The notes under the pieces: generated by a model | Database searches by the model: none | Told to the model about the DNA's origin: nothing | What the model saw: the letters and a program-made list of their open reading frames with translations, nothing else | In this document: piece after piece, positions 13,184 through 32,000 of the stretch | How the letters are laid out: each line of letters begins with the position of its first letter | How positions within the stretch are numbered: position 1 is the first letter of the stretch | Program-made: the position numbers and the translations under genes | NCBI GenBank assembly: GCA_963710555.1 | Contig: CAVQAT010000003.1 | Span: forward strand, 77,672 to 109,671 | Reading direction: 5' to 3' | DNA: 32,000 bases | Source: an uncultured delta proteobacterium | Lineage (GTDB): Bacteria; Myxococcota_A; Polyangia; Polyangiales; Polyangiaceae

Positions 13184-13211
13184 AGCGACTGTATTCGGTC
13201 AAGTGAATGCC

Positions 13212-13300
13212 GTCTAACTGAGTCGTCCACTTCCTATCGACCGCGTTTGCCTAAGCGGACCGCTCCAGCGACCAGAAAGGTGATTTTTTAAGTGTTAGGT
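13212..13300 (+). other. candidate short attC (89 bp), R'' GTCTAAC, R' GTTAGGT
   Basis: It has exactly the R'' heptamer used by the type A attCs, and a complementary GTTAG core 82 nt downstream. The internal arms pair only imperfectly by eye, so this is tentative. Confidence 0.4.
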
Positions 13301-13351
13301 TTTTTTTGAGTGATGGGAACGACCTTGGTCGAGCACCAGACACCTTCCCCA

Positions 13352-13561: not shown

Positions 13562-13562
13562 A

Positions 13563-13955: not shown

Positions 13956-14236
13956 CGGCACACCCCATTGCGGAACTCGATGCGCGCCCCTGCCGCGTAA
14001 AGAAACCAATCGCCGTCAGAATAATTCAGACGGTAGTCGCCGTTCCAGATCGGAGCGTGATCACGCCTGCCTTCAAGCGTTTCCACGGACACCAAGGAAA
14101 GATCCCATCTCCCCACTTCGTCAGCACCACAGGTACAAGCAGAGGCTGGATTGGGGGATAGCAATTGCCCCAGAGCGGCTCCCACCGCCGCAACTAGCAG
14201 AACTAAACTGAGGTTGACCTTCTTTGAACGCGGCAT
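13952..14236 (-). CDS. small secreted protein of unknown function (inverted cassette gene)
   Basis: The track ORF 13952..14380 is trimmed to the Met at 14236. MPRSKKVNLSLVLLVAAVGAALGQLLSPNPASAC is a signal peptide. Its stop TGA overlaps the ATG of the next gene (ATGA), which suggests translational coupling. Confidence 0.5.
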   Translation of the reverse strand: MPRSKKVNLSLVLLVAAVGAALGQLLSPNPASACTCGADEVGRWDLSLVSVETLEGRRDHAPIWNGDYRLNYSDGDWFLYAAGARIEFRNGVCR

Positions 14237-14507
14237 ACTTGATAATAGAAGTTGTGATCGCCGCAGACCATCGCGATTCCGTTCTGCGCCTGAAAAGCCT
14301 AGCTCTCGGAAGAAACTCGTTCTTTGCACGCGAATCGGCAAAGTCTTGGGAGAGGGATGACCGCTTCTGGACGGTCGCACCGCGCGTAAAATGTGGCTCG
14401 CAAGCTAATCAGCGGCGTGCCTCAGATCAAAGGTGAGCAAGGGTAGAGCAAACCTAACGCGTGGTCGAACTCTCGTGCGATGTAATCGCGTGGTGGCTCA
14501 AGGTGCC

Positions 14508-14667
14508 CCCCAACGAGAAATTGCTGCTGACAGCGACTGCCTAGGTTTTCGCTGCGCTGGGAAGTTGTTGTTCGGCCGCCACTGGGCTTTCTCCCTTTTG
14601 TCGCGGCGGCCGGTCGGTGTAAACTGGTCGAGGCTCTGCGCTGCAGCAGAATTTCAGGGCGTTAGAC
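14508..14667 (+). other. attC-2 (type B, 160 bp), R'' CCCCAAC, R' GTTAGAC
   Basis: Type B body: CAACGAGAAATTGCTGCTGAC...CGGCCGCCAC...GCGGCGGCCGG...CTGCAGCAGAATTTCAGGGC GTTAGAC. Confidence 0.8.
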
Positions 14668-15866
14668 CGCACTTTCCCGCTTGCCCACTCACTCTTTGAT
14701 TGTGGCCGGCTATTCGGATCAATTGTTTGGGCTTAGCCCGCGCAGCGAGTTCGTTGCCGAGGGCGACGCTTTTTTGGAAGTGGGACTTTCGCGCGCGGGA
14801 GCAAGAATGATGAGCTGATCAACTTGGCTCACTTGCTCTGGGTGAGGGCTTCGCCCGCGTTTCCTGAACTGCGCCTCGCTGGTGGCAGCGCACGCTGGGA
14901 CGCCTGGATTGAATCGATGTTCCCTCGTCTCTTTCCGTCTGGTGTTCGCGCCTTTGTGATGGTCCGCCTTCAATCGCCTGGGCTCAGAGCTTCTTGGATG
15001 ACGTTCGCGCCCTCGTTGAGGTTTGAATTGCGTCGACTGTTGCTCGGATGGTCTCAAGACGCCCGCGCCATCTGGGTTTCTACAGCTTGTCGGTCAGCAA
15101 ATTGCTGCACCACTTTCGCCTCGCCGAGAGTTGCGGCCCTTCGGGCCGTTTCGGTGCTCTCGAAGCCAGCCTCTCCGAGGATTCTGGCGGGCGCGGGCTC
15201 GTGAATTTCGGGCGCTGAAGGGCGCTCAATGGAGATGGCGTGCTTTTTGAAGAGGCTTTCGACCTTCCCGTGAAGGCGTCATCGCGGGCGGATCGCCCAG
15301 CTGTCGTCAGAACCTGTTGTGCCAACTTTGCTCTGCAGTGAGTGCGGTTCACGGGCTGGTGAAGTCAGTGTGCGGCTGTCCTCGCGGAGCGGCGCTGTTT
15401 CATCGACTGGATGCGCGCTCTTTCCAGTCATCTTTTTATGCCAGGTGCACTGGCAAGATCACTGCCGTTTGCGCGGACTCGTTCTGGGCAAGCTCTTCTG
15501 AACTGATGAACTCGTGTCGCTCGTTGTCTTCGAACGGCCAGCGCGCTGGCAAATGATCACCGGCGCCTCAGACGCTTTTGCGAAGTCAGAACGGAAGCGT
15601 GAGTCGTCGGCCAACTGCCGTTTTGGCGCCTGCATCTAGCCGTTTGATTCCTGCTGAGCCCGGTGTGGTCTCACCTCCTCGCGCGCTGATGCCTCCTGAA
15701 ACTGAGGGAGTCGGTCTAACGAGCCGCTGCTACCTGACGGCGATCGTTAACGTTGTCGCTTCGCTGAAACTTGGCAGTTCGGCCGCCACCGGGCCTTGTC
15801 CCTTTTGTCGCGGCGGCCGTTCGGGGTAACCTGCGAGGCCTCGCGCCGCAGTAGAGCGGCAAGGCG
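14662..15866 (+). mobile_element. integron cassette L1 (1205 bp), ORF-less L family
   Basis: Bounded by the G|TT crossovers of attC-2 and attC-3. Paralogous to L2-L5. Track ORFs on both strands are not frame-conserved between copies. Confidence 0.75.
14885..15120. repeat. phased ~59-bp degenerate tandem units in L1
   Basis: Units start at 14885, 14944, 15003 and 15061. Each opens with G(C/T)(A/T/C)CGCGCC-like sequence followed by TCGTKGAGG / TGGATTG / CGATGT-like blocks. Confidence 0.7.
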
Positions 15867-15872
15867 TTAGAC
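15714..15872 (+). other. attC-3 (type A, 159 bp), R'' GTCTAAC, R' GTTAGAC
   Basis: GTCTAACGAGCCGCTGCTACCTGACGGCG...GCGCCGCAGTAGAGCGGCAAGGC GTTAGAC. Confidence 0.85.
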
Positions 15873-17072
15873 CGCACTTTCCCGCTTGCCCACTCACTCT
15901 TTGACTGTGGTCGACTATTCGGATCAATTGTTTGGGGTTAGCCCGCGCAGCAAGTTCGTTGCCGAGGGCGAGACGTTTTTGAGTGATGGACTTTCGCGCG
16001 CGGGAGCCAGAATGATGAGCTGACCGACTCGGCTCAGTTGCTCTTGGTGAGGGCTTCGCCCGCGTTTCTTAAACTGCGCCTCACTGGTGGCAGCGCACGC
16101 TGGAACGCCTGGATTGAGTCAATGTTTCCTCGTTTCTTTCCGTGTGATGTTCGCGCCTTCGTGGTGGTTCACCTTAGGTCGCCCAGGCTCAGAGCTTCTC
16201 GGGTGACATTCGCGCCCTCGTGGAGGTTTGAATTGCGTCGAGCGTTGCATGGGGTTCCCAAGACACCCGCGCCATCTGGGTTTCTACAGCTTGTCCATCA
16301 ACAAACTGCTGCGCCACTTTCGCCTAGCCGAGAGTTGCGGCCCAGCGGGCCGTTTCGGCTGTCTCGAAAGCAGCTGGGTCGATGATTCTGGCGGGCGCGG
16401 GCTCGTAATTTTCGGACGCTGAAGGGCGCTCGATGGAAAGGGCGTGCTTTTTGAACAGCCTTTCGACCTTTCCGTGAGTGCGCCATCGCGGGTCGAGGCG
16501 CCCCCGCTTTCTTCAGAATTGGTTGCGCCAACTTTGCTCTGCATGAAGTGCGGTTCGCGGGCTGATGAAGTCAGCGTGCGGCTGTCCTCGCGAAGCGGCG
16601 TTGTTTGTTCGACTGGATGCGCGCTCTTTTCAGTCTTCGTTTTATGCCAGGTGCACTCGCAAGATCACTGCCGTTTGCGCGGGCTCGTTCTGGGCAAGCT
16701 CTTCTGAACTGATGAACTCGTGTCGCCCGTTGTCTTCGAACGGCCAGCGCGCTGGCAAGTGATCACCGGCGCTTTAGACGCTTTCGCGAAGCAATCAGTT
16801 TGGCGTGGGCCGTCGGCCACCTCCCGATTTCGCGCCTGCAGCTAGCCAGCTGATTTCGGCTGAGCCCACCGTGGTCTCACCTCCTCGCGCGCTCATGCCT
16901 CCTGAAACTGATGGAGTCGGTCTAACGAGCCGCTGCTACCTGACGGCGGTCGTGAACGCTGTCGCTTCGCTGGAACTTGGCAGTTCGGCCGCCACCGGGC
17001 CTGGTCCCTTTTGTGGCGGCGGCCGTTCGGGGTAACCTGAAAGGCCTCGCGCCGCAGTAGAGCGGCAGGGCG
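15867..17072 (+). mobile_element. integron cassette L2 (1206 bp), ORF-less L family
   Basis: Same module order as L1. It has frameshifts relative to L1 in every candidate frame. Confidence 0.75.
16090..16320. repeat. phased ~59-bp degenerate tandem units in L2
   Basis: Units start at 16090, 16149, 16208 and 16265. Confidence 0.7.
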
Positions 17073-17078
17073 TTAGAC
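16920..17078 (+). other. attC-4 (type A, 159 bp), R'' GTCTAAC, R' GTTAGAC
   Basis: Same type A body as attC-3. Confidence 0.85.
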
Positions 17079-18275
17079 CGCACTGTCCCGCTTGCCCACT
17101 CACTCTTTGATTGTGGTCGGTTCATTAGATGACTTTGTTTGGGCTAAGCCCGCGCAGCAAGGTCACTGCCGATGTTAAACTGTTTTGAATGTGGTTGTTT
17201 CGCGCGCGAGAGTGAAAATGATGAGCTGTTCAACTTGACTCACTTGCTCTGGGTGAGGGCTTCGCCCGCGTTTCTTAAACTGCTCCTCGATGATGCCATC
17301 GCACGCAGGGACGCATGGATTGAGTCGAAGTCCCCTCGCCTTTTTTCGGTTGATGTTCGCGCCGTCGTGGTACTTCCGCTTCAGTCGTCCGGTCGCAGGG
17401 CTTCTCGGGTGACGTTCGCGCCCTCGTGAAGGTTCAAATTTCGTCGAGCGTTGCGTGTGGTTTTCAAGACGCCTGCGCCATATGGGTTTCTACAGCTTGT
17501 CGGTCAACAAACTGCTGCGCCACTTTCGCCTCGCCGGGAGTTGCGGCCCTTCGGGCCGTTTCGGTGCTCTCCAAGGTAGCCTCTCCGAGGATTCTGAAGA
17601 GCGCGGGCTCGTGAATTTCGGGCGCTGAAGGGCGCTCAATGGAGAGGGCGTACTTTTTAAACAGTCTTTCGACCTTTCCGTGAGTGCGTCATCGCGGGCG
17701 GAACGCCCAGCTTTCAGCAGAATCTGTTGCGCCAACATTGCTCTGCATGAAGCGCGGTTCGCGGGCTGGTGAAGTCAACGTGCGACGGTCCTCGCGAAGC
17801 GGCGTTGTTTCATCGACTGGATGCGCGCTCTTTTCAGTCTTCGTTTTCCGCCAGTTTCGCTGGCAAGATCACTGCCTTTGCGCGGGCTCGTTCTGGGCAA
17901 GCTCTTCTGAACTGCTGAATCTGTGGTGCTAGTTGTCTTCGAACGGCCAGCGCGCTGGCAAATGATCACCGGCGCCTCAGACGCTTTCGCGAAGGAGTAG
18001 ATTTGTGCTGAGTCGTCGGCCAACTGCCGCTTTGGCGCCTGCAGAAAGCCCTTTAATTCCTGCTGAGCCCGATGTGGTCTCACGTCCTCGCGCGCTGAGG
18101 CCTCCTAAAACTTTTGGAGTCGGTCTAACTAGCCGCTGCTACCTGGCGGCGGCCGCAAACGCTTTCGCTTCGCTGAGAGTTGGCAGTTCGGCCGCCACCG
18201 GGCTTTCTCCCTTTTGTGGCGGCGGCCGTTCGGTGTAACCTGCAAGACCTCGCGCCGCAGTAGAGCGGCAAGGCG
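17073..18275 (+). mobile_element. integron cassette L3 (1203 bp), ORF-less L family
   Basis: Same module order as L1 and L2. Confidence 0.75.
17295..17530. repeat. phased ~59-bp degenerate tandem units in L3
   Basis: Units start at 17295, 17355, 17414 and 17471. Confidence 0.7.
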
Positions 18276-18281
18276 TTGGGC
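18123..18281 (+). other. attC-5 (type A, 159 bp), R'' GTCTAAC, R' GTTGGGC
   Basis: GTCTAACTAGCCGCTGCTACCTGGCGGCGG...GCGCCGCAGTAGAGCGGCAAGGC GTTGGGC. Confidence 0.85.
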
Positions 18282-18677
18282 AGAGAGAGGGGCAATGAAT
18301 ACGGCAAAGGTTATCGTCGTTCACACTCTTTGTTTCGCACGGTGCAGCCTGTCCGTTTTGGCCTAAAGAGATGTTGACTCACCATTTGGGTCATTGTCAT
18401 CACCAACAAGGTCCATGTGTCGTAAGTCAGTCCCGGTGCTTGATATCCGAATCGCTACATTGACCACCTCAAGATGAGGTTCAAATCTTCCCCCCCTAAG
18501 TGGTCTCGATTCGCTTGTCGTTCAGACCAGGACCGGCTAACTCTCAAGACCATTTGCCTGGCAATCCCTCCATGGAGTCTGCGCTGACCCGACAGCGAAC
18601 TGCAACGAGACCGAAGATGTTCAGGTATTCCTCGGCCAACGTGGTTGAGTCCTTAGATGCTGAACTAGAAAACTCAA

Positions 18678-19736
18678 ATGATCAAAACCAACTTGAAGAC
18701 CGGAACGCTCGTAATTGCTGTGGGCGTTCTGCTTCTCGCCGTCGCGTGTGGCAACAACTCCGTCGACGACAATAATGTTGACACCACAGGCGGGCAATCC
18801 TCGGACAGTACGTCTTCAGGTGGAAGTTCCAATGGAGGACAGACCTCCGACGGCGGAGAATCGGCGAGCGGCGGCTCTAGTGGTGGGACGGAAGGAAACG
18901 GCACCGGTGGCAAATTCGGCATTGGAGGCGATTCTTCTTCCGGTGGACAGGCAACGGGCGGTGCCGTCGGTGACCAACCCATTGGTACGTTGGGTGAGCC
19001 TTGTTCATCGCCAGGTGTGTTTGCCTGCGCAGATGTGAATCCCAAACTCGCCCTCTTGTGCGGAAGTGATAAACGCTGGGAGGCGCGGGAGACTTGTGAT
19101 GGTGACGAGCTCTGCGATTCGAACGAAGGCCCCGCACTGGGAACGTGCCGCTCGCAGCTTCCGGAATGCCAAGCGGGCACCGCTAAGTTTTGTGATGGTG
19201 ACGCGCTAGTTGTGGAATGCGCCGAGGGTGGGTTCGATACGCAGGTCGTTGAAGAGTGCGGAAGCGGCTTTGGCTGCCGCGATGGCTTCTGTGTGGGAGT
19301 CGATGACCCGTGTCCGGAGGACGCTGTGCGCATCGAGAATTGCACAGATGAGGCTTGCGGCACCAAGTCACCTCCACGTTGCTTTTCTTCATTAGACTGT
19401 GACTACGTACATGCTGGCGTCTCCGTGTACCCCACCGGCCAAGTTGCCTTTCGGCTCCCCTTCGAAGACCTGTGTTCCTCGAGCTGTGGTCATGCTCGCT
19501 ATGCGGTGACCTTCAGTTCAGTTGAAGGAATGGCGGCAAAGGTAACAGTGGGCCCGGGTTGGGGAATGTCGACAGTCGGTCCTAGTGCGTGCGACGACAT
19601 CGTCGAAAAGTGCATTGTGCTTCCACCGAACCAAGTTGATGAGAGTTGGATTTTGTATCTGACGCTCCTTGCCCAGCATGCCGTAACTCGCAACCTGATG
19701 GTCGAAGCTGTTCCGCCGGGTACCACGTGCGACTGA
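18678..19736 (+). CDS. cysteine-rich lipoprotein with a G/S-rich linker (unknown function)
   Basis: 352 aa. The lipobox is LLLAVACGNN. About 90 aa of G/S/T-rich linker follow. The C-terminal domain has regularly spaced Cys residues (CSSPGVFAC...CGSDKRWEARETCDGDELC...CRSQLPEC...FCDGD...VEC...CGSGFGCRDGFC). Confidence 0.75.
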   Translation: MIKTNLKTGTLVIAVGVLLLAVACGNNSVDDNNVDTTGGQSSDSTSSGGSSNGGQTSDGGESASGGSSGGTEGNGTGGKFGIGGDSSSGGQATGGAVGDQPIGTLGEPCSSPGVFACADVNPKLALLCGSDKRWEARETCDGDELCDSNEGPALGTCRSQLPECQAGTAKFCDGDALVVECAEGGFDTQVVEECGSGFGCRDGFCVGVDDPCPEDAVRIENCTDEACGTKSPPRCFSSLDCDYVHAGVSVYPTGQVAFRLPFEDLCSSSCGHARYAVTFSSVEGMAAKVTVGPGWGMSTVGPSACDDIVEKCIVLPPNQVDESWILYLTLLAQHAVTRNLMVEAVPPGTTCD

Positions 19737-19856
19737 TATAGTATCGTGAGTGAACTTCACCGATATCGAGAGACTTCAGACCTTCTAGACGCATCTTGCT
19801 ATTCGATTGATGACGTTATCTCCGATAGCTCGAACGTTCACGACAACTAAGCTCCT

Positions 19857-20012
19857 GCCCAACAAGCAATTGGTGACCGACGGCCACTGTCCGGGTCCTC
19901 GCTTCGCTGGAAGGTTTGCGTTCGGCGCTCGCTCCTTCCCCTTTGGGGATGAGCGCCGGTTGTCGTATGCTGTTGAGGCCTCAGGCCGCGGCACAATTGC
20001 AGGGCGTTGTGC
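19857..20012 (+). other. attC-6 (divergent, 156 bp), R'' GCCCAAC, R' GTTGTGC
   Basis: The arm AAGCAATTGGTGACCGACGGCC pairs with GGCCGCGGCACAATTGCAGGGC. The central part has the same stem-like layout. Confidence 0.7.
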
Positions 20013-21428
20013 TGATCTGGCCCGCTTGCCCGTCGACTTTTTCCGTCAAAGTGCAGTTGCGTTCATTGTTTGGAAGACGGCCCGCGCACTTGGGGTTGTT
20101 CGAGTTCACAATGTTTTCTTGAGAGAGCTTTCGCGCGCGATGAGTTGGACTGGAAACTGTTCGAATTGGCTCGACAGCTCTGACTGTGGGCTTCGCCCCC
20201 TTTCTCAAATTGCTCCTCGTTTGTGCTCGCGCCCTCGTGAAAGCCTGGATTGCATCGATGTAACCTCGACTCTTTCCAGCTGACGCTCGCGCCCCCGTGG
20301 AGTTTTGGATTGCGGCGACCTGGTCTCAAACTGTTCCGGATAACGCCCGCGACCTCAGCACGGCTTGGATTGAATCGAAGTTATCTCGTGTTCGGTTGGC
20401 TGACGTCCACGCCCTCCACAAGCTTCATTTCGCGACCTGCTAAGAAGGCATCAAGACATTCCCGCTGTGCTCGATCCACGGGCTCGCCTCGCCCGAATCT
20501 CGGCCCACCTGCTCGCCTCGCCTGTTGCCGATTTCGCCCTATTCATTTTTTGAGTGCGAAGTCATGACGATGACTGCAATCGCGTCGCTCCGGCAACACG
20601 CTCCTGACTTTTCGGGCTTCGCCCTCATTCCGCAATCTGAATCCGCCTCTTCTGGCGCGGGTCGTGGCTAAGTAACCACCGTTAGCATTCTCAAAATCTA
20701 GAGGTCCCAAAGCGCGGGCTCGTGAACTCGGGCGCTAAACGGCGCTCAAGAACTGACGAGCAATTCACCTTTTCGGGAAGAGAACATCGCGGGGAAGTGA
20801 GCACGTGGATTGTTGAATTGTCACCATTTGAGGTCGGCTGATTTTCCGAAGTGAAAGTTCCCGCTCACCTCGGAGTCCTTGCGTCATTCGCATATTTTGG
20901 TTTGGCCTTTTTTTCGGGCTGATCATTCCAGCTTGAACAGCCTCTTGTTAGTCGATGTCTTTCCGACGACTGACTGCGCGCTCGTGGCAGCGGACTTCGA
21001 GCAAGGTGAGAACCTTGCCATGACCGGATCCATTGCGCGGTCCCTGATTAAGGCAAGCTCTGCTGAACAGCTGAACTCGTGGTGGTTCAACGTCTTCGAC
21101 CGGCGAGCGCGCTTGCAAAGGACGACTGGCGCCTTCCCCTGCTCTTTCATGCTCAACAACTTTCTCCAAGACCACAAAGTCATCACAGCCAAGGCGCCGA
21201 ATCCACGCCTCCTACTCGTTGCTGCACTCGTCGTGGGTCGTTTTCTCGCGCGCTTTTGCCTGCAGGCATCGACGGCCACCACAACGAGAAATTGCTGCTG
21301 ACTACTGAGAGGTTTTCGCTGCGACGCCGGGTTTTGGTGCGGCCGCCACCGGGCTTTATTCCTTTTGTGGCGGCGGCCGGTCGGTGTAAACTGGTCGAGG
21401 CCCTGCTGGGCAGCAGAATTTCAGGGCG
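20007..21428 (+). mobile_element. integron cassette S1 (1422 bp), ORF-less S family
   Basis: Starts TTGTGCTGATCTGGCCCGCTTGCCC and ends with a type B attC. Paralogous to S2-S4 and homologous module by module to the L family. Confidence 0.75.
20225..20464. repeat. exactly phased 60-bp degenerate tandem units in S1
   Basis: Units start at 20225, 20285, 20345 and 20405, an exact 60-nt register. Example unit: GCTCGCGCCCTCGTGAAAGCCTGGATTGCATCGATGTAACCTCGACTCTTTCCAGCTGAC. Confidence 0.8.
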
Positions 21429-21434
21429 TTAGAC
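21279..21434 (+). other. attC-7 (type B, 156 bp), R'' CCACAAC, R' GTTAGAC
   Basis: CCACAACGAGAAATTGCTGCTGACTACTGAGAGG...CTGCTGGGCAGCAGAATTTCAGGGC GTTAGAC. Confidence 0.85.
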
Positions 21435-22630
21435 CGCACTTTCCCCCTTGCCCACTCACTCTTTGATTGTGGCCGGTTCATTAGATGACTTTGTTTGGGC
21501 TAAGACCGCGCAGCTAGGTCGTTGCCAAAGGCGCACTGTTTTGGATGTGGTTCTTTTCGCGCGCAAGGGCGAGAATGGCGAGCTGTTCAACTTGGCTTAC
21601 CTGCTCTGGGTGAGGACTTCGCCCGCTTTTCTTGAGTTGCTCCTCGATGATGCCATCGCACGCTGGGACACCTGGAAAGAGTCGATGTTACCTCGTCTCT
21701 TTCCGTATGATGTTCGCGCCTTTGTGGTGGTTCGCCTTCAATCAGCCAGACTCAGAGCTTTTCGGGTGACGTTCGCGCCCTCGTTGAGGTTTGAATTGCG
21801 TCGACTGTTGCTCGGATGGTCTCCAGACGCCCGCGCCATCTGGGTTCTACAGCTTGTCGGTCAGCAAACTGCTGCACCACTTTCGCCTCGCCGAGAGTTG
21901 CGGCCCTTCGGGCCGTTTCGGTGCTCTCGAAGCCAGCCTCTCCGAGGATTCTGAAGAGCGCGTGCTCGTGAATTTCGGGCGCTGAAGGGCGCTCAATGGC
22001 AAGGGCGTGCTTTTTGAAGAGGGTCTCGACCTTTTCGTGAATGCGTCATCGCGGGCGGAGCGCCCAGCTTTCATCAGAATCAGTTGCGCCAACATTGCTG
22101 TGCATGAAGTGCGTTTCGCGGGCTGGTGAAGTCAGCGTGCGGCTGTCCTCGTAGAGCGACGTTGTTTCATCGCCTGGATGCGCGCTCTTTCAGTCTTCGT
22201 TTTCTGCCAGTTTCGCTGGCAAGATCACTGCCTTGCGCGGGCTCGTTCTGGGCAAGCTCTTCTGAACTGATCAGCGCGTGGTGCTTGTTGTCTTCGAACG
22301 GCCAGCGCGCTGGCAAATGATCACCGGCGCCCTATCCGTTTTCGCGAAGTCACAGCGTTATTCTGAGTCTTCGGCCAAACGCCGGTTTGGCGCCTGCAGC
22401 TAGCCAGCTGATTTCTGCTGAGCCCACCGTGGTCTCACTTCCTCGCGCGCTGATGCCTCCTGAAACTGATGGAGTCGGTCTAACGAGCCGCTGCTACCTG
22501 ACGGCGGTCGTGAACGCTGTCGCTTCGCTGAAACTTGGTAGTTCGGCCGCCACCGGGCCATGTCCCTTTCGTCGCGGCGGCCGTTCGGGGTAACCTGAAA
22601 GGCCTCGCGCCGCAGTAGAGCGGCAAGGCG
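21429..22630 (+). mobile_element. integron cassette L4 (1202 bp), ORF-less L family
   Basis: Same module order as L1-L3. It lies immediately upstream of the SEFIR/TIR cassette. Confidence 0.75.
21652..21888. repeat. phased ~59-bp degenerate tandem units in L4
   Basis: Units start at 21652, 21712, 21771 and 21829. Confidence 0.7.
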
Positions 22631-22636
22631 TTAGCT
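22478..22636 (+). other. attC-8 (type A, 159 bp), R'' GTCTAAC, R' GTTAGCT
   Basis: Type A body. The crossover G is at 22630. Confidence 0.85.
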
Positions 22637-22643
22637 AGACACC

Positions 22644-24083: not shown

Positions 24084-24118
24084 ACGAGAATCGTGCCACA
24101 ACGTCATTCTGAATCGCT

Positions 24119-24277
24119 AGCTAACTGGCCATTGCTACCTGACGGCAGGCGTGAAGGTTTTCGCTTCGACACAAGCTCATCGTTCGGCCGCCACTGGGTT
24201 TTCTCCCTTTGGTCGTGGCGGCCGGTCGGTGTATTCTGAAAGGCACAGCGCCGCAGTAGAATGGCAGGGCGTTAGAC
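24119..24277 (+). other. attC-9 (type A variant, 159 bp), R'' AGCTAAC, R' GTTAGAC
   Basis: GCTAACTGGCCATTGCTACCTGACGGCAGGCGT...GCGCCGCAGTAGAATGGCAGGGC GTTAGAC. Confidence 0.8.
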
Positions 24278-25583
24278 TGATCTGCCCCGCTTGCCCGCTA
24301 ACTTTTGATCGTCAGGGTTTGAGTTGATCATTCGTTTCATAGGCAGCCCGCGCAGCTGAGGTCGGTCGATCTCGCAATGTTTTCGTGAGGAAACTTTCGC
24401 GTGCGATCAGTTTGATTCAAAGCTGTGCAACTTCGCTCGATTGGTCTCGAATGGGAAGTCGCCCGTTTTCGTGATTGCTCATCGTTTGAGTCCGCGCCGG
24501 TCTCAGGAGCCCGACTTTGTCGTTGTACAATCGATGCGCCCAGCTGACGCCCGCGCCCAGCGAGCGTGGCATTGTCGCCGGGTTCCGACAACTTTCGTCT
24601 GATGCCCGCGCCGTCATGGAGCGTATTGGTTGGGTGGACTTGAGGGTTGCCTCGGGCCAGCAGACAGTTGCTGAGAGCACGAACGCTTCGATTTTCTTTC
24701 TTGTTTTGGTCGCCGTGAAGCCGAGTTGGTTGGCGTCGCCCTTCAGATTTGTAGCGGTGCAGGTTCAAAGGCAGGGACTGTTGTCTCTCGGCGCAGACGA
24801 CGGGCTCCTCTCGAAAGCGGGTTCGGTCCCTTCTGGCGCGGGCCAGCGGATTTCGGCGGCGCGGGCTCTTTGACTTGGGCGCTGAACGTCGCTCAATCAC
24901 CAACATGTTGTCGGCTTTTCGTGATCAGATCATCGCGAGGAAATGGGTTCGTGGATTGCTTCCGGTTTGCCAGTTTTTGGTGGTTGTTTTTTTCGAATTG
25001 ATGGTTCCCCGCTTCTGTCGCAAGCATCGATTTCACTTCTGTTTTTGTTTGGCCCAATTCACGGGCTTAGCTTGGTCAGCGTCCACTGCATCTCGCTGAT
25101 CGTCGGCGTCTCGCTGAATTGGCGTCGCGCTTTTGGTTGTTCACTGTTTCCTGAATAATGCTTTGCCGAACTGATCAAGGTCCGCGCGAGCTCTTGATTC
25201 GGGCAAGCTCTGCTGAACAGTTGAACTCGTGAGGGCAAAATGTCTTCGGCCGGCGTGCGCGCTTGCGAATGATCAGCGGCGCCTTCCCCTTCCCCGCGTC
25301 GGACCACTCACGTGCCAGATGTTTCGTGAAATAATCAGCTTGGCGCCTATTCCGTGCCTCCTGCTCGTCCCTTCACTCATCGTGGAAAGCTTTGTTGCGC
25401 GCAATGGCCTCCAGAAAAACTGATACGACAGTCTAACGAGCCGCTTCTACCTGACGGCGGTCGTGTAGGCTTTCGCTTCGCTGCAGCTTGGCAGTTCGGC
25501 CGCCACCGGGCTTTCTCCCTTTTGTGGCGGCGGCCGTTCGGGGTAACCTGAAACGCACAGCGCCGCAGTAGAGCGGCAAGGCG
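24272..25583 (+). mobile_element. integron cassette S2 (1312 bp), divergent ORF-less S-family member with a type A attC
   Basis: The leader is TTAGACTGATCTGCCCCGCTTGCCC. It has the same module order (CG palindrome region, phased units, GGCGCT-N4-GTCGCT, GGCAAGCTCTGCTGAACAGTTGAACTCGTG block) but is more diverged. Confidence 0.65.
24490..24660. repeat. phased ~55-59-bp degenerate tandem units in S2
   Basis: Units start at 24490, 24549 and 24604 (GTCCGCGCCGG..., GCCCGCGCCCAGCG..., GCCCGCGCCGTCATGGAG...). Confidence 0.6.
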
Positions 25584-25589
25584 TTGTGC
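25431..25589 (+). other. attC-10 (type A, 159 bp), R'' GTCTAAC, R' GTTGTGC
   Basis: Type A body. The crossover G is at 25583. Confidence 0.85.
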
Positions 25590-26923
25590 TGAGCTGGCCC
25601 GCTTGCCCCTCATCCTTTGACTGTGAAGGTTCGCTTGAACGATTTGTTAAGGAGGTGGCCCGCGCATTCGGATTCTTCCGAGGTCGCCATGTTTTCTTGG
25701 GAGAGTTTTCGCGCGCGATGAGTTCTACCCAAAAACTGTTTGTCTTGCCTGGACTGCTCTGAATGTGGGCTTCGCCCGCGTTCTTAAGTTGCTCCTCGTT
25801 TGTGCTCGCGCCCTCGTGGAGGCCTGGATTGTGTCAATGTAATCTCGTCTCTGTCCGGCTGACGCCCGCGCCCTCGTGGAGATGTGGATTGCGGCGATGT
25901 CGTCCCGACTCTTTTCGATTGACGCCCGCGCCCGCATCGCGCGTTTGGATTGAGTAGATGTAACTTTCAGGACGTCCCCGCCCTCTTTGAGTCTACATCT
26001 TGTCGTTCAAGCACATTGTGGCAGCTGGTTCCCTCGGCTAGTTGCTGCTTCCTGTAAGCGTTGGGTCGGTTTTTGGAATACTGCTGAAACAAATGTTTCT
26101 GCCGCCTCGAAACGCTTCTTTCGGCTGAGAAATCGCTGTTTATGTCGCGGACCGCGTACAAGTTAACGCCGTTAACTTGCTCAAAGGCTTGAGAATTCGA
26201 AAGCGCGGGCTCGGGACTCGGGCGCTGAGTGGCGCTCAAGGACCGATGAGCGTTTCACCTTTTCGTGAAGAGAGCCGCACGGGGACGTGAACTCGATGAT
26301 TGTGGAAGAGTCACCGTCGGAGTGACAGGTTTCTCCGAAGTGGAAGCCCCCGCTCATTGCGAAGGCGTTTGCAGGGTCGACTTCTTTTGTTTGGCCTGTT
26401 TCGCGGCCTGCCTTTTGCCAGCTTGAACAGCCTCTTGTCAGCCGACACCATTTCGAGGACTGATTGCGCGCTCTTGCGTCGCTTCTTTTGATCACGGCGA
26501 GGCTTTTGCCAAGACGGGTCCCCTTCTGCGCGGGCCCTTGAATTTGGGCAAGCTCTGCTGAACAGTTGAACTCGTGGTGGCTCAACGTCTTCGACCGGCG
26601 AGCGCGCTTGCAAAGGACGACTGGCGCCTTGCCCTGCTCTTTCATGCTCAACAACTTTTTCCGTGACCACAAAGTCATCACAGTCAAGGCGCCGAATCCA
26701 CGCCTCTTGCTCGTTGCTGCGCCCGTCGCAGGTCGTTTCCTCGCGCGCTTTTGCCTGCAGGCATCGACGGCCACCACAACGAGAAATTGCTGCTGACTAC
26801 TGAAAGGTTTTCGCTGCGACGCCGGCTTGTGGTGCGGCCGCCACCGGGCTTTATCCCTTTTGTCGCGGCGGCCGGTCGGTGTAAACTGGTCCAGGCCCTG
26901 CTGGGCAGCAGAATTTCAGGGCG
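25584..26923 (+). mobile_element. integron cassette S3 (1340 bp), ORF-less S family
   Basis: Paralog of S1 and S4. It has a 4-nt length difference relative to S1 inside the best candidate frame. Confidence 0.75.
25804..26020. repeat. phased 60-bp degenerate tandem units in S3
   Basis: Units start at 25804, 25864, 25924 and 25974. Units 1 and 2 share GC(T/C)CGCGCCCTCGTGGAG. Confidence 0.8.
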
Positions 26924-26929
26924 TTGTGC
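26774..26929 (+). other. attC-11 (type B, 156 bp), R'' CCACAAC, R' GTTGTGC
   Basis: Near-identical to attC-7 apart from the R' core tail. Confidence 0.85.
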
Positions 26930-28109
26930 TGAGCTGGCCCGCTTGCCCGTCGACGTTTTCCGTGAGGGTTTGTCGCGATCATTTGTTTAAGGGACGGCCC
27001 GCGCATTCGGGGTTGTTCGAGTTCGCAACGTTTTCTTGAGAGAGATTTCGCGCGCAATGAGTCCGACCAGAAACTTCTCAAGTTAGCTCACCTGCTCTGC
27101 ATGAGGGCTTCGCCCGCGTTCTTAAGTTGCTCCTCGTTTGTGCTCGCGCCCTCGTGAAAGCCTGGATTGTGTCGATGTAAGCTCGACCTTCCCGGCTGAC
27201 GACGCGCCCTCGTGGAGACTTTGCTCGCGGCGATGAAGTTCCAAATCTTTCCGGGTGACGCCCGCGCCTGCAGCACGATTTGAATTGTTTTCGGGTGGCT
27301 CTCAAGACTTCCGCGCCACCTTTGGTTCTACTTCTTGTCGTTGCACCAAGTTGCGACAACTGTCTAGCTCGGCTTATTGCTGCTTATTGCCGACGTGGGT
27401 TCGAATTCTGGAACGCTGCAGGGACGATGATTCTTTGCCGCCTCGAAAGTCTTCGTTCGATCATCAAATTATCGTTTCCGGCGCGAACGCGTCAAAGTCT
27501 TCATCGTTCACATCTTCGAAATCTTGAAGGGTCAAAAGCGCTGGCTCGCATACTCGGGCGCTAGATGGCGCTCAAGAACTGACAAGCGATTCACCTTTTC
27601 GTGGAGAGAGCATCGCGGGAAAGTGAGCACGTGGATTGTTGAATTGTCATCCTTTTGGATTCGTTCGTTCTCCAGAATGAAACCTCCCGCTCGTGTCGAC
27701 CGTGTTGCGACATCAGTAATTTTTTGTTTGGCATTTTCGCGGGCTGTTCATTCCAACTTGAACAGCCTCTTGTCAGCCGAAGTCTTTCCGAGACTGATCG
27801 CGCGCTCGTGACAGCGGACTTTGAGCAAGGTGAGAACTTTGCCATGACCGAATCCATTGCGCGGTCCCTGATTGAGGCAAGCTCTGCTGAACAGCTGAAC
27901 TCGTTTTGGTTCAACGTCTTCGACCGGCGAGCGCGCTTGCAAAGGACGAGCGGCGCCTTCCCCTGGTCTTTCCTGAGCAACAACTTTGTTCGACATCGCA
28001 AAGTCATCACAGCGAGGCGCCTAATCCACGCCTCTTGCTCGTTGCTGCACTCGTCGTGGGGCGTTCTCTCTCGCGCTTTGGCCTACAGGTATCGACGGCC
28101 ACCACAACG
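26924..28109 (+). mobile_element. integron cassette S4, ORF-less S family; its attC is interrupted by the IS91-like element (remainder at 30670-30816)
   Basis: Colinear with S1 and S3 up to CGACGGCCACCACAACG (ending 28109). Homology then resumes at 30670 (CAACGAGAAATTGCTGCTGAC...). Confidence 0.75.
27142..27365. repeat. phased ~59-bp degenerate tandem units in S4
   Basis: Units start at 27142, 27201, 27260 and about 27309. Confidence 0.7.
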
Positions 28110-28433
28110 GAATAGGGTTTTCGCGGTGACGGGGGTAAGGGAGCTCGCGACCGTCCGCCGGCCAGCGCTAAAACCTCTGTTGAACAACCCGCCTTCAGCT
28201 ACGCGTGAGTAGAGAAGCCACTTGGTGATTTGCTTTCATTTGTGACTCACTGGTGAGCGCTAGCGAGCGGCCCCCAAGCGCAGGTTGCGATCCTACGGAG
28301 CTGTTCTTGAGCAATAACTGACCGGTGAGAGGGGCTCGACGGTTGAAATCTCGCGACACGACCGACGCGACGCGCACGGGTGCATTCACGCACGTTACGC
28401 GCGTCCGAATGGAGTCGCTCCCCGCAGGCTTGT

Positions 28434-29633
28434 TCATGCGACTCTCCCAATGGTCAAGGTCTCCGTCCGTGGTGGCCCTCGCGCTTTCGCAAGTCCGGGC
28501 TCGCCCGCGCGGTTCGTCATGGCTTCGGCCCATGCACCACATTCAGCAGCGTCTAAGCGGCGACCGATCGCCAGAGATAACATTCCGCATGCTGGGCAGC
28601 GAGCTAGTTGAGGAGTTTGGTTTTCCGGCCGCGAGTCCTTCACGGCTTCTTGCGTCTGGCGTGAGCGGCTCAGCAGCAGTTGCAAACGCTGCAGTTTACT
28701 TCTGTGCTGGGGATGCAAAAGCCCGAAGCTCCGCACCCGGTGAAAGCCCTTGGGCGGCACGTGCTGAAGAAAACGTCTCAAGAATTCATTTACCGGCAGA
28801 GTCATCTGCTTGCGCTCGTGAGTACGACTGTCCGTGTAGCGGAAGGTGACCCTGTGCTCATCTGAAGCTAACACCGCGTGATTGCCAATGGCCGTCTTGT
28901 GCACGTAGCGACCTAGATATTCGATCACCTTCTCGGCTCCCTGCACGACGGGCTTGGCAAAAGTGATCCAAGGCTTATTTGCTGGCACCGACGGCATTTC
29001 TCCTTTGGGCAAGGCCTTGCGCGCGAGCGCCATGAAGCGCCCACGAAACTTCTTGGACAGCGCAGGAACGGGGACCAAGTAGCGTTTCTTTCGGCGAGGT
29101 GCTGTGAGCCACGTCTCTCCATCCGCGGCGACGCCTCCTCCGGGCACGAGCATGTGTACGTGCGGGTGCCACTCCAGAGTGCGCGTCCACGTGTGCAGCA
29201 CTGCGAGGGCGCCGATGAGCTGAGCGCCCAAGAAGTGTGGGTCTTGGCAAAGCTCGGCCAGCGACTCATAGGCGGCTCGAAACAAGACTGGCAGCAGCAC
29301 CGTCTGCTTGGAGCGCACCACGTCGCGCAGCTCGCTTGGCAGCGTGAAGACGACGTGAAAGTACGGCACGGGAAGCAATAGCTCGCGCTGACGCTCAATC
29401 CATTGAGTCGTTCGCAAAGTGCCGCACTGAGGGCAAGCCCGATGGCGGCACGAATGGTAGAGCAAGTGCTGCGAGTCACAGCTCTCACAATGCGCGAGGT
29501 GTCCACCTAGCGCTGAAGTGCGACAAACGCTGATTTTTCCGATTGCTCGCACATGACTTGGCAGCACGGCGTCACCGTAACGCTCCAGATAGGCTGGACC
29601 ATGCTGCCTCACCACTTCGGCGAGGAGACTCAT
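28434..29633 (-). CDS. tnpA: IS91-family rolling-circle (HUH, Y2) transposase
   Basis: 399 aa. The N-terminal zinc-binding region is HCESCDSQHLLYHSCRHRACPQCG. The HUH motif is WHPHVHMLVPGG. The C-terminal tyrosine motif is YLGRYVHKTAI. Confidence 0.9.
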   Translation of the reverse strand: MSLLAEVVRQHGPAYLERYGDAVLPSHVRAIGKISVCRTSALGGHLAHCESCDSQHLLYHSCRHRACPQCGTLRTTQWIERQRELLLPVPYFHVVFTLPSELRDVVRSKQTVLLPVLFRAAYESLAELCQDPHFLGAQLIGALAVLHTWTRTLEWHPHVHMLVPGGGVAADGETWLTAPRRKKRYLVPVPALSKKFRGRFMALARKALPKGEMPSVPANKPWITFAKPVVQGAEKVIEYLGRYVHKTAIGNHAVLASDEHRVTFRYTDSRTHERKQMTLPVNEFLRRFLQHVPPKGFHRVRSFGLLHPQHRSKLQRLQLLLSRSRQTQEAVKDSRPENQTPQLARCPACGMLSLAIGRRLDAAECGAWAEAMTNRAGEPGLAKARGPPRTETLTIGRVA

Positions 29634-29643
29634 GGCGCGGCCG

Positions 29644-30531
29644 CTAGAGCTTGGCCATCAGCCGATCGAGGGTCGCCAGGAGCCTCTCATCGTTTTCGTG
29701 CGTCACATGCAAGTACACGCTTGTGGTCTTCAAGCTGCGATGCCCAAGCACTCGCTGAATTGTCTTCAGCGTGATCCCGGCTTCAAGCAGATGAGTCGCA
29801 TAGCTATGCCGCAAGGTATGAATTGAAGCGCGCTTCTCTACGTGTTGTTCCTCCAGCACGGCGCTAAATGTTTTCTGTAGTGAGGTTCGATCTACGCTGC
29901 CACCCTTTGCCCCGCCGACGAAGAGCAGAGGACCCTTCGATGCTTGACGGTCCTGCTTCCAGAAGCGCCGCAGCTTGTGAAGTAGCGGTCGCGGGAGAGG
30001 CACCATTCGATCTTTTGCTCCCTTCGCATCGCGCACCAACACAATCAGACGGTCGCTGTCTATGTCTCGCGATTCGAGCCTGAGGCCTTCGCCAAGGCGC
30101 AAACCAAGCGCGTAGATTGTCTGAAGCGCCATCCGACGCGTAGGCTCGCGGACTGCACCAAGCACGCGATGGGTCTCTTCCACGCTCAAGACCACGGGTA
30201 GCTTCTGGGCGATCTTCACGCGCACAAAATCCAGAACTGACCACTCTTGAGGGCACGTGTAGGTGAAGAAGAAACGCAGCCCGTGGACCGCGACGTTGCG
30301 CGTCGAAGAAGCAAGCATTCGCTCATCGCGCAAATAGATGAGGTATGCGCGAACATCGTCCTCTGTCAGAAGGTAGGGCTCTTTCTTCACGTGTTCCAAA
30401 AATTGACGAACTACCCGCCTGTAGGAGTCCTGCGTCTTGGGGCGAAAGTCTCGCAGCCGCATGTCCTCGCTGAGTCGGCCTTGAACGTTTGCTAAAGTGA
30501 TCATCATCATCTCCATGAAAAGCGACGACAC
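29644..30531 (-). CDS. tyrosine recombinase (phage-integrase family) co-transcribed with the IS91-family transposase
   Basis: 295 aa with an N-terminal SAM-like core-binding domain (TQDSYRRVVRQFLEHV). The catalytic blocks are GLRLGEGLRLESRDID, HTLRHSYATHLLEAGITLKTIQRVLGHRSLKTTSVYLHV. It lacks the IntI-specific insertion. Confidence 0.9.
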   Translation of the reverse strand: MSSLFMEMMMITLANVQGRLSEDMRLRDFRPKTQDSYRRVVRQFLEHVKKEPYLLTEDDVRAYLIYLRDERMLASSTRNVAVHGLRFFFTYTCPQEWSVLDFVRVKIAQKLPVVLSVEETHRVLGAVREPTRRMALQTIYALGLRLGEGLRLESRDIDSDRLIVLVRDAKGAKDRMVPLPRPLLHKLRRFWKQDRQASKGPLLFVGGAKGGSVDRTSLQKTFSAVLEEQHVEKRASIHTLRHSYATHLLEAGITLKTIQRVLGHRSLKTTSVYLHVTHENDERLLATLDRLMAKL

Positions 30532-30669
30532 CGCGCCGCCGCCTATGGAAAGCGTGAATCACTGAGCGCAGTGGCACTCCTCAGAGTCATGAGCAGCTTC
30601 GTGGCAGGCTCAAGATGAACTAAACGGACGCAATGAGCCCAAAGCTACCGTGCGCAGCGCGGTTTCGTT

Positions 30670-30822
30670 CAACGAGAAATTGCTGCTGACTGCTGAAAGG
30701 TTTTCGCTGCGACGATACGTTGGCGTGCGGCCGCCACCGGGCTTTATCCCTTTTGTGGCGGCGGCCGGTCGGTGTAAACTGGTCGAGGTCCTGCTGGGCA
30801 GCAGAATTTCAGGGCGTTAGAC
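30670..30822 (+). other. attC-12 (type B), right-hand remainder after the IS insertion; R' GTTAGAC
   Basis: CAACGAGAAATTGCTGCTGACTGCTGAAAGG...CTGCTGGGCAGCAGAATTTCAGGGC GTTAGAC. The R'' core CCACAAC is displaced to 28102-28108. Confidence 0.85.
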
Positions 30823-31039
30823 CGCACTGTTCCGCTTGCCCACTCACTCTTTGATTGTGTTCGGTTCATTAGATGACTTTGTTTGGGCTAAGCCCGCGCA
30901 GCAAGGTCACTGCCGATGTCGAAGTGTTTTGAATGTGGTTGTTTCGCGCGCGAGAGCGAAAATGATGAGCTGTTCAACTTGACTCACTTGCTCTGGGTGA
31001 GGGCTTCGCCCGCGTTTCTTGAACTGCCCCTCGCTTGTG

Positions 31040-31275
31040 GCCGCGCACGCCGAGAAAATTCAGATTAAGTCGATGTCCCCTCGCCTCTCTCCGGTTGATG
31101 TTCGCGCCGTCGTGGTAATTCGGGTTCAGTCGTCCGGTCGCAGGGCTTCTCGGGTGACGTTCGCGCCCTCGTGGAGGTTTGAATCTCGTCGAGCGTTACG
31201 TGTGGTTCTCAAGACGCCCGCGCCTCTCAGATTTCTACAACTTTTCTAACAGTGAGTTGAGCAACGGCCATCCCG
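31040..31275. repeat. phased ~59-bp degenerate tandem units in L5
   Basis: Units start at 31040, 31100, 31159 and 31216. Confidence 0.7.
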
Positions 31276-31288
31276 CTGCTGATAGTTG

Positions 31289-31309
31289 CAGCCCTGCGGG
31301 CTTGTTTTT
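31289..31309 (+). terminator. hairpin plus T5 run inside cassette L5 (intrinsic-terminator-like)
   Basis: CAGCCC-TGC-GGGCT(T)G is followed by TTTTT. It is homologous to the CGGCCC-TTC-GGGCCG hairpin of L1-L4, with a compensatory G:C to A:T change. Confidence 0.4.
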
Positions 31310-31926
31310 GGCCAAGTCTTCTTATCAGCGGCTCAACCTTTGCAGCTGCGGCACTCTCGCTTGATGAGGCTTGGTATTTCCTCTGGCTACTGGATCCTGA
31401 AAGGCGCGGGCTCTTGAATTTCGGGCGCAAAAGGGCGCTTGATGATTAGTGCGTGCTTTTTGAACAGACTTTCGACCTTTCCGTGGTTGCGTCGTCGCGG
31501 GTCGAGGCGCCCCGCTTTCTTCGGAATTGGTTGCGCCAACTTTGCTCTGCATGAAGCGCGTTTCGCGGGCTGGTGAAGTCAACGTGCGTCGGTCCTCGCG
31601 CAGCGGCGTTGTTTCATGGACTGGATGCGCGCGCTTGTGCGTCTGCGTTTTCCAACAGGCACGTTGACAAGACCACTGCGTTTGCGCGGGCTCGCTCTGG
31701 GCAAGCTCTTCTGAACTGATGAGCTCGTGGTGCTCGTTGTCTTTGAACGGCCAGCGCGCTGGCAAGTGATCACCGGCGCCTCAGGCGCGTTCGCGGGGTA
31801 ATGCGTTGGTGCCGAGTCGTCAGCCAACTGCCGTTTCGGCGCCTGCAGCTAGCCGTCTGATTCCTGCTAAGCCCGGCGTGGTCTCAATCCCTCGCGCGCT
31901 GAGGCCTCTTAGAACTTTTGGAGTCG

Positions 31927-32000
31927 GTCTAACTAGCCGCTGCTACCTGGCGGCAGTCGTCAAGGCTTTCGCTTCGCTGAAAGTTGGCAGTTCGGCCGCC
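31927..32000 (+). other. attC-13 (type A), 5' part only; truncated by the window end
   Basis: GTCTAACTAGCCGCTGCTACCTGGCGGCAGTCGT...TTCGGCCGCC matches the 5' half of attC-5. Confidence 0.8.

Follow-up and report, generated by a model that had tools for sequence, protein, structure and literature searches.

Integron and cassette array

The DNA stretch analysed here (the window; 32,000 nucleotides (nt) of contig CAVQAT010000003.1 from an uncultured delta proteobacterium of the Polyangiaceae) contains a chromosomal-type integron, in which a family of nine cassettes without a protein-coding gene occupies about 60% of the cassette array. The family comprises five L cassettes and four S cassettes, each 1.2-1.4 kb long. 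The integrase gene intI adjoins a LysR gene, and the array runs rightwards from intI on the plus strand. The database proteins nearest to IntI bear the name integron integrase, and its relatives include a protein from a metagenome-assembled genome (MAG) of Minicystis with 62% identity. Each cassette is closed by an attC site of about 150 nt of a single type, with R'' GTCTAAC ... R' GTTAGAC or GTTGKGC. In a scan of 185,579 species representatives, the central motif of this attC was found almost exclusively in MAGs of Polyangiaceae/Sorangiineae. The G|TTRRRY crossovers, the attC at the 3' end, and the position of the array beside intI identify the units as integron gene cassettes. The attC profile matched 13 sites in the window, one of which runs off its end. 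The integrase, the attC sites, and the L and S cassettes, which lack an open reading frame (ORF), are located as follows:

9964-10986, minus strand: integron integrase intI (Pfam Phage_integrase and Phage_int_SAM_4, a SAM-like domain)
12770, 14661, 15866, 17072, 18275, 20006, 21428, 22630, 24271, 25583, 26923, 30816, plus strand: attC ends, from the attC profile
14662-15866, plus strand: L1 cassette, ORF-less
15713-15866, plus strand: attC of L1, R'' GTCTAAC ... R' GTTAGAC
15867-17072, plus strand: L2 cassette
17073-18275, plus strand: L3 cassette
20007-21428, plus strand: S1 cassette
21429-22630, plus strand: L4 cassette
24272-25583, plus strand: S2 cassette, the most divergent S copy
25584-26923, plus strand: S3 cassette, with a 60-nt tandem repeat at 25807-25933
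26924-28109, plus strand: S4 cassette, left part
28110-30669, minus strand: 2.56-kb insertion splitting S4 just upstream of its attC; S4 rejoins cleanly
28434-29633, minus strand: IS91-type Y2 (HUH) transposase in the S4 insertion (Pfam Y2_Tnp, Zn_Tnp_IS91)
29644-30531, minus strand: tyrosine recombinase in the S4 insertion, directly upstream of the transposase (Pfam Phage_integrase; integrase-like SAM domain)
30670-30816, plus strand: S4 cassette, right part (attC)
30817-32000, plus strand: L5 cassette, with an extra central insertion of about 58 nt; the window end cuts inside its attC

Identity alignments and attC boundaries confirm the five L and four S paralogous cassettes of the original prediction, which had been made from the sequence of the window. 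The total of 14 cassettes given there is approximate, as the window contains 13-15, according to how two divergent attC-like sites upstream of 14661 are counted. The L cassettes are mutually 82-88% identical over their full length and the S cassettes 67-85%, and the two types have only short islands in common, which occur in colinear order. When 26924-28109 is joined to 30670-30816, S4 aligns with S1 at 85% up to the attC. The pairing of a Y2 transposase with a tyrosine recombinase in the S4 insertion is unusual.

The L copies are mosaic. L3 and L5 are 98% identical in alignment columns 1-100 and 60% identical in columns 401-500, where L1 and L4 are 99% identical. This pattern points to duplication and recombination within the array, and the nine copies would be in-array duplicates that were later reshuffled by recombination. 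Therefore, the individual capture of each cassette, which the original prediction had presumed, is not required.

Backbone arms in the window and in related bacteria

All nine L and S cassettes carry module 1, CCGCTTGCCC, at +15 to +25, followed by modules GCCCGCGCA, TTTCGCGCGCG, and GGGCTTCGCCCGCG and by three to four units at 56-60-nt spacing. Further downstream are GCGCGGGCTC...GGCGCT-N4-GGCGCTCAA, CATCGCGG, GGCAAGCTCTKCTGAAC...GGCGCC, and the attC. The original prediction regarded this succession as the eight-module architecture of a single ORF-less family with 59-60-bp units. The modules, their order, and the units are real. The single-family status does not stand, because modules 1-3 and 7 flank unrelated genes in other genomes and therefore constitute a general backbone, not the signature of an ORF-less family. 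Specific to the L and S cassettes is their centre, which consists of the units and of a few hundred bases with the islands GCGCGGGCTC, GGCGCT-N4-GGCGCTCAA, and CATCGCGG and, in the L cassettes alone, a GC hairpin (modules 4-6 of the original numbering). The first unit copy corresponds to the end of the 5' arm as found in some of the gene-bearing relatives.

The 5' arm extends about 150-250 nt from the crossover and is composed of CGCTTGCCC ... GGCCCGCGC ... TTCGCGCGCGATGAG, with GGGCTTCGCCCGCG optional. The 3' arm covers about 300 nt before the attC and is composed of CGCGCGCTC ... TGCGCGGGC ... GGGCAAGCTNTG ... GTCTT-N4-CGGC-N2-GCGCGCT ... GGCGCC ... TCGCGCGCT. Within the window, the arms are confined to the nine L and S cassettes:

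14668-14876, plus strand: 5' arm of L1 (nhmmer 5'-arm profile, E 1e-39 to 1e-50 across the nine cassettes)
15873, 17079, 21435, 30823, 20014, 24279, 25591, 26931, plus strand: 5'-arm starts of the other copies (nhmmer)
14875-15116, plus strand: four tandem units of L1, 58-60 nt, with the core TGAYGYYCGCGCCNTCGTGG ... TGGATTG.GTCGATG ... CTCG.CTCTTTCCG
15126-15162, plus strand: L-only hairpin CGGCCC-TTC-GGGCCG inside GAGAG...CTCTC (L1), from sequence and alignment
15402-15705, plus strand: 3' arm of L1 (nhmmer 3'-arm profile, E 1e-58 to 1e-77 across the nine cassettes)
16609-16911, 17812-18113, 22169-22469, 31616-31917, 20966-21270, 25116-25421, 26456-26765, 27792-28094, plus strand: 3' arms of the other copies (nhmmer)

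Related arrays were gathered using the attC motif, a relaxed 3'-arm pattern, and IntI homologues, and were then searched with the arm profiles. The strict module-7 pattern GGCAAGCTCTNCTGAACN{33,41}GCGCGCT is over-strict and had no match in collections of genome and metagenome contigs outside which the source genome lies. The comparison loci (labelled L007-L049, and distinct from cassettes L1-L5) are in MAGs of Polyangiaceae/Sorangiineae or on contigs with an IntI 77-79% identical to that of the window. The 5'-arm profile also matched L007, L008, L009, L011, L021, L032, and L045-L048, and the 3'-arm profile L009, L021, L029, L032, and L048. We defined the complete backbone as CGCTTGCCC, GGCCCGCGC, and TCGCGCGCG together with CGCGCGCT, GCGCGGGC, GGGCAAGC, GTCTT-N4-CGGC-N2-GCGCGCT, GGCGCC, TCGCGCGCT, and an attC of the same type. 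Both arms are present in the same cassette in the nine L and S copies and in gene-bearing cassettes of L009, L032, L021, and L048, and a single arm lies at a contig edge in L007, L008, L011, L029, and L045-47. The related-genome comparison, suggested as a check by the original prediction, thus recovered the arms together with gene cargo:

L032, 5879-6520: 213-amino-acid (aa) lipoprotein with lipobox (Y1), between arms
L032 (metagenome Ga0164241_10008780), 7162-7778, opposite to the array: ParE-like toxin operon (Pfam)
L007: 153-aa lipoprotein (Z1)
L009: HEAT-repeat protein (Pfam) and zinc-ribbon-like protein, between arms
L021: membrane protein, between arms
L048: 187-aa protein, and a BrnT toxin (Pfam) with its partner, between arms

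The ORFs of the relatives start 0-150 nt past the 5' part of the backbone and stop just short of its 3' part. In L032, the ParE-like toxin gene and its upstream partner have an ATGA overlap, which is typical of toxin-antitoxin operons, and the backbone 3' arm sits at the expected promoter/operator position of this operon.

Cassettes with units and without a gene are also present elsewhere. In locus L008, four units follow a 5' arm and precede a weak 3' arm, and a credible ORF is lacking; the first cassette of L045-L047 (IntI 78% identical) consists of a 5' arm and units until the contig ends. Therefore, gene-less backbone cassettes are not a quirk of one genome. The assemblies of L045-L047 and L049 break close to the first cassette, at a distance of at most a few hundred bases, and those of L045-L047 do so in the 5' arm or the units. 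These breaks are consistent with the collapse of short-read assemblies at multi-copy backbone cassettes, which are probably under-represented in public data.

Coding capacity of L and S cassettes

The L and S cassettes are non-coding on every test run. Each complete copy (L1-L5, S1-S3, and the left part of S4, S4a) contains 6-18 stops in every frame, and the copies differ by indels of 1-2 nt, which bears out the earlier claim that no reading frame is kept. Variable sites are distributed evenly over the three codon phases. Synonymous changes make up 0.25-0.33 of the single-nucleotide codon differences in all six frames, which is approximately the random expectation, and no window of 150 columns exceeds a synonymous fraction of about 0.5. 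The ratio pN/pS ranges from 0.4 to 1.9 across frames and windows, with the lowest value at about 0.4, and the coding-potential check proposed in the original prediction favours no frame. The GC content by codon position is flat in the L and S cassettes, compared to about 0.65/0.44/0.60 in the real genes of the window. Six-frame blastp of L against S gave similar scores for all frames, as expected from similarity at the DNA level. No frame of any L or S cassette has a Pfam match at E<=1, and a search of 5.8 billion proteins found no homologue of the 198-aa ORF of S3. The stops, codon phase, synonymous fraction, pN/pS, GC content by codon position, Pfam, and six-frame blastp led us to reject a protein-coding gene or recent pseudogene family, and the L and S copies are ORF-less cassettes. 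Conservation at the nucleotide level in discrete islands, as originally claimed, agrees with the lack of a codon-phase or synonymous signal.

Alternatively, the gene of an ancestral backbone cassette may have become a pseudogene that was duplicated nine times, so that the islands would be chance survivors or would have been homogenised by conversion. We consider such a decayed gene family quite unlikely. In its favour, relatives with the same arms hold genes at this place, pN/pS is somewhat below 1 (0.4-0.6) in a few frames and windows, and the mosaic identity shows inter-copy recombination. A minus-strand frame of 82-94 aa is open in L1-L4; however, it is rich in Arg, Ser, and Pro, overlaps an equally open frame, and bears no selective signature. 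Decayed genes would not account for the absence of a period-3 signal, GC3 signature, synonymous excess, protein homologue, and Pfam match, nor for the frame-breaking 1-nt indels between conserved islands. A third-position bias is also missing from the conserved stretches shared by L cassettes with S cassettes and with relatives, where the best-conserved stretch shared by L and a relative from another genome has 12/11/7 differences at codon positions 1/2/3 (hand count from alignments). Furthermore, the centre consists largely of tandem backbone repeats whose spacings are mostly not multiples of three, and the same units are present in two other genomes.

Two other identities of the units were rejected. 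A CRISPR array does not agree with the presence of only three to four units, the degenerate repeat cores, and the conservation of the inter-core "spacers" between copies. A protein-repeat reading of the approximately 60-nt units was dismissed on account of the degenerate cores, the conserved inter-core sequence, and the 56-60-nt spacing.

Mirrored arms and conserved sites

Three boxes of the 5' arm (H1, H2, and H3) recur reverse-complemented in the 3' arm in the opposite order. In L1 they are located as follows:

14679-14687, plus strand: box H1, GCTTGCCCA, 9/9 complementary to 15485-15493
14735-14743, plus strand: box H2, AGCCCGCGC, complementary to TGCGCGGAC at 15470-15478 and also to 15191-15199
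14791-14796, plus strand: box H3 / site 1, GCGCGC core of TTTCGCGCGCG
15413-15418, plus strand: box H3' / site 2, GCGCGC
15485-15493, plus strand: box H1', TGGGCAAGC
15541-15546 and 15681-15686, plus strand: conserved GCGCGC sites of the 3' arm beyond H3'

The H1 consensus GCTTGCCC at +18 has its partner GGGCAAGC about 230 nt before the attC, that of H2, GCCCGCGC at +76, is matched by GCGCGGGC 16 nt before H1', and that of H3, GCGCGCGATGAG... at +130, by ...CTCATCGCGCGC at the start of the 3' arm. Box H1 forms 7-9 bp in 16 of 16 cassettes; seven of its ten column pairs are standard in all 16, and the first pair in 15, with C for G in L4. Box H2 forms 7-9 bp, extended to about 17 bp in the X/V type through GGAGAYGC/GCRTCTCC. 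Box H3 is complementary at 15/15 positions in X1 (L009), 12/12 in V1, and 13/15 in V2 and Y2, each time with different sequences. Across the 16 cassettes, 73.5% of the cells contain standard pairs, compared to 30-47% when the partner is slid by one to three columns, in a hand-anchored, ungapped alignment that was fitted to the proposed helices, so that the paired percentage leans towards them. By our own estimate, two non-palindromic 8-mers with complements in mirrored order in the other arm are very unlikely to arise by chance. The inverted-repeat architecture is therefore real, and it may be used for pairing. The boxes nest equally well in two settings: in a linear strand or transcript they would enclose the cargo, and in an excised circular cassette they would enclose the attC. 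Minimum-free-energy folds of the junctions calculated from single sequences did not reproducibly use the H1 and H2 boxes. In L009, the cargo is flanked by inverted repeats of 17 nt (88%; 1825-1841/2493-2509) and of 15 nt (perfect; 1877-1891/2436-2450), and the gene is thus centred in a long interrupted palindrome.

Each L and S cassette contains four GCGCGC sites at fixed offsets, and 33 of the 47 such sites in the window are within the nine cassettes, which also have two GGCGCC sites each. Conservation is concentrated in invariant runs of 8-14 nt split by unalignable sequence of variable length. Such a pattern resembles a series of recognition sites more than it does helices. In L5 (31290-31312), the insertion of about 58 nt turns the L-type hairpin terminator-like, followed by TTGTTTTTGG, and, compared to the other L copies, one G-C stem pair is replaced by A-T, with both sides changed.

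Searches for RNA structure and promoters

The original prediction proposed that the L and S cassettes encode a structured non-coding RNA (ncRNA). In this alternative, the plus strand would give rise to one large RNA or several small ones, in which the islands would serve as structural or tertiary motifs and the boxes would hold the fold closed. The plus strand of the cassettes is indeed G+U-rich and strongly asymmetric, and invariant islands amid unalignable sequence and nested complementary boxes also speak for it. Mismatches in H3 are G.T in 14 cases and A.C in six, which weakly favours the plus strand or its transcript. The sRNA-Xcc1 family, as cited in PMC8876359, provides a precedent for an integron-borne small RNA. 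However, Rfam had no match at the gathering score in the whole window and none at E<=1 over 14600-21500, so that the proposed check against known families returned no hit. RNAalifold of 17 diverse 3' arms predicted only 23 pairs, all among the invariant GCGCGC/GGCGCC palindromes, with a covariation term of 0.06, and the statistics for the whole element are equal on both strands and not discriminating. Alignment of 26 units gave no consensus hairpin, and their stability, with a mean z-score of +0.3, is not above that of shuffled sequences. Covariation of the boxes is within the range of shuffles, and arms of the same kind flank mRNAs of either orientation. These results do not bear out the RNA proposal, which is in our opinion unlikely; the hallmarks of a novel structured ncRNA were not found in this set, which is small, so that weak structure could escape detection. 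The known families sRNA-Xcc1, group I/II introns, OLE, GOLLD, ROOL, and HEARO were ruled out with Rfam 15.

Another proposal of the original prediction was that the cassettes act as promoters or insulators. The 5' arm would provide a promoter and leader far from Pc and the 3' arm a terminator, and gene-less copies would drive or insulate their neighbours, as L4 could do upstream of the cassette for a TIR/SEFIR protein. The position of plus-strand ORFs of the relatives between the arms fits this idea, ORF-less Treponema cassettes have promoter activity (PMC6557892; PMC8876359), and terminator-like hairpins with T-runs recur at conserved plus-strand positions in the L copies, on a strand that is T-rich. 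Against it, a scan for sigma-70-like consensus sites, which was not tuned to Myxococcota and is therefore weak evidence, detected none in the conserved modules of any L or S copy and two sites in 18 kb, compared to 4.1 expected. A sigma-70 reading of CGCTTGCCC was rejected, since no -10 element is conserved downstream at its expected location, and a sigma-54 reading because the spacing, as read from the sequence, does not fit. The arms also flank the minus-strand ParE-type operon. The promoter idea in its original form is not upheld, and we regard a promoter, terminator, or insulator function as improbable, to about the same degree as a structured RNA.

Proposed role of the backbone

Of the roles put forward in the original prediction, that of a protein-binding scaffold or cis-acting DNA appears to fit best. 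We tentatively favour, with a confidence somewhat short of even, the interpretation that the L and S cassettes are backbone cassettes without cargo, which were multiplied and recombined within the array, and the arms of which may act in cis by folding in single-stranded form and by binding proteins at their boxes and units. The lineage-specific backbone consists of a non-coding 5' arm, a non-coding 3' arm of about 300 nt, and the attC. In relatives, the arms enclose unrelated genes in either orientation, whereas in the L and S cassettes the space between them is taken by three to four units derived from the end of the 5' arm, together with non-coding sequence of a few hundred bases. As conserved elements, the islands would be cis-acting nucleic-acid sites and not a protein code. 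In a single-stranded cassette, either an excised strand or a transcript, the arms may zip together, so that the cargo and the attC come to lie in separate loops. The GC palindromes (four GCGCGC and two GGCGCC) and the tandem units are putative protein-binding sites. A scaffold of this kind would benefit the cassette's own maintenance, mobility, or expression and would not supply the host with a gene product.

Several observations weigh against the scaffold interpretation. Box H3 of the L type is only 6-7 bp long, and large unpaired stretches separate the boxes. Covariation of the boxes is not above that of shuffles, which gave 72.6 +/- 1.0% standard pairs compared to the observed 73.5%, with 109 of 500 reaching the observed value. 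As shuffled partners pair equally well, the complementarity derives from conserved columns and not from demonstrable covariation. A permutation of cognate against non-cognate partners of H3 was marginal (p ~0.04 with related rows, 0.11 with nine lineages), and part of the complementarity is due to the self-complementary GCGCGC cores. The scaffold does not account for the T>A skew on the plus strand of each L and S cassette (A 14%, T 26%). Islands of modules 4-6 are documented within this genome only, and because the L copies are mosaic, gene conversion could mimic selection on these islands of the L and S centre. Finally, the comparison covers few sequences, about 19 cassettes from about eight assemblies.

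We also speculate that the gene-less backbone cassettes might be "empty vectors" of cassette genesis, each of which would receive a gene between its inverted-repeat arms, although we consider this very unlikely. Put another way, each side of a gene would gain one block of about 650 nt made up of 3' arm, attC, and 5' arm. If true, the empty vectors would explain the unrelated genes in either orientation between the same arms, the differences in break-points from cassette to cassette, and the retention and multiplication of empty copies. The clade would then offer a concrete testable substrate for the question of cassette origin, for which an incomplete search of the literature found no accepted mechanism.

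Other cassettes and neighbouring genes

The first cassettes after attI (11515-12613) encode a GrpB-family protein and a protein with a glyoxalase/bleomycin-resistance fold. The two genes are about 60 nt apart with no recognisable attC between them and may form a fused two-gene cassette. All ORFs in the region 12771-14661 between two attC sites are on the minus strand (12571-13101, 13563-14009, and 13952-14380). The region also includes a GTCTAAC resembling R'' near 13213 and a T9 run near 13297, and it probably represents two cassettes with reversed genes and a degenerate attC. The cassette 18276-20006 contains a 352-aa ORF (18678-19736, plus strand) with no Pfam match, and its attC is far more divergent than the others (profile E 1.5e-9 compared to 1e-33 to 1e-47).

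The 479-aa protein encoded by the cassette 22644-24083 has a TIR/SEFIR domain at its N-terminus and no Pfam match in its C-terminal half, and the cassette likely serves anti-phage defence. Beyond the source contig, this protein is recorded only on a short Logan contig from ERR12040027. Some kb away from the integron, on the side of the integrase, 4558-6273 encodes a 571-aa protein with an impB/mucB/samB domain (Y-family polymerase, ImuB-like). The proximity of a mutagenesis or SOS-type gene to intI may be of regulatory interest.

Comparison with known systems

A typical integron cassette is compact and consists of a promoterless gene and an attC. Gene-less cassettes with a backbone common to gene-bearing relatives are unusual for integrons, and an incomplete search of the literature found no description of Myxococcota integron cassettes with conserved flanking arms. 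In the subset of cassettes described here, the cargo is framed by about 500 nt of conserved non-coding backbone, the two sides of which are mirrored. If the arms act in cis on folding, recombination, or expression, cassettes can hold accessory machinery beyond the attC, and purely "selfish" or regulatory cassettes could dominate an array. The recurrence of the arms around unrelated genes in several genomes is relevant to the genesis of cassettes. If the arms are functionless, large chromosomal arrays can still be composed mostly of non-coding paralogues, which matters for counting the integron "gene" content of genomes and metagenomes.

The Vibrio VCRs are an example of attC sites that are homogeneous within a lineage. 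The L and S backbone resembles them in that non-coding sequence is conserved across unrelated cargo in one lineage; however, the conserved block here reaches about 300 nt upstream and 150-250 nt downstream of the attC, is present in a subset of cassettes only, and has two sides that are inverted repeats. The homogeneity of attC within a lineage was already noted for sedentary chromosomal integrons in the IntegronFinder survey (PMC4889954).

ORF-less integron cassettes are known, and some of those from oral-metagenome Treponema are promoter-active (Tansirichaiya et al. 2019, PMC6557892). The L and S cassettes share with the ORF-less Treponema and environmental cassettes (PMC6557892, PMC8876359) the 3' attC, the absence of an ORF, and a proposed action as nucleic acid. 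Unlike the Treponema type, they are 1.2-1.4 kb long, are present in nine copies that constitute about 60% of the array, have arms in common with gene-bearing cassettes elsewhere, and showed no sigma-70-like promoter in the consensus scan. The sRNA-Xcc1 family of integron-encoded small RNAs from Xanthomonas (Chen et al. 2011, as cited in PMC8876359) is similar in being non-coding cassette content of a chromosomal integron, whereas the L and S cassettes have no Rfam match, are about ten times longer, and have no conserved fold that we found.

Group IIC-attC introns and other group II introns associated with integrons (PMC7923331) are also long, largely non-coding, structured elements found with attC sites, and contain a variable ORF inside conserved RNA arms. 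In contrast to them, the L and S cassettes have no Rfam group II match (E<=1) and no reverse transcriptase, and their boundaries are the cassette crossovers and not an insertion within attC. Elements like miniature inverted-repeat transposable elements resemble the L and S cassettes in their inverted-repeat boxes around variable content, multiple copies, and lack of an ORF. The repeats here are instead subterminal, short (7-17 bp), and interrupted, and the ends are attC crossovers. The mobile unit is the attC-bounded cassette, the 3' arm of which extends about 230 nt past the outermost box.

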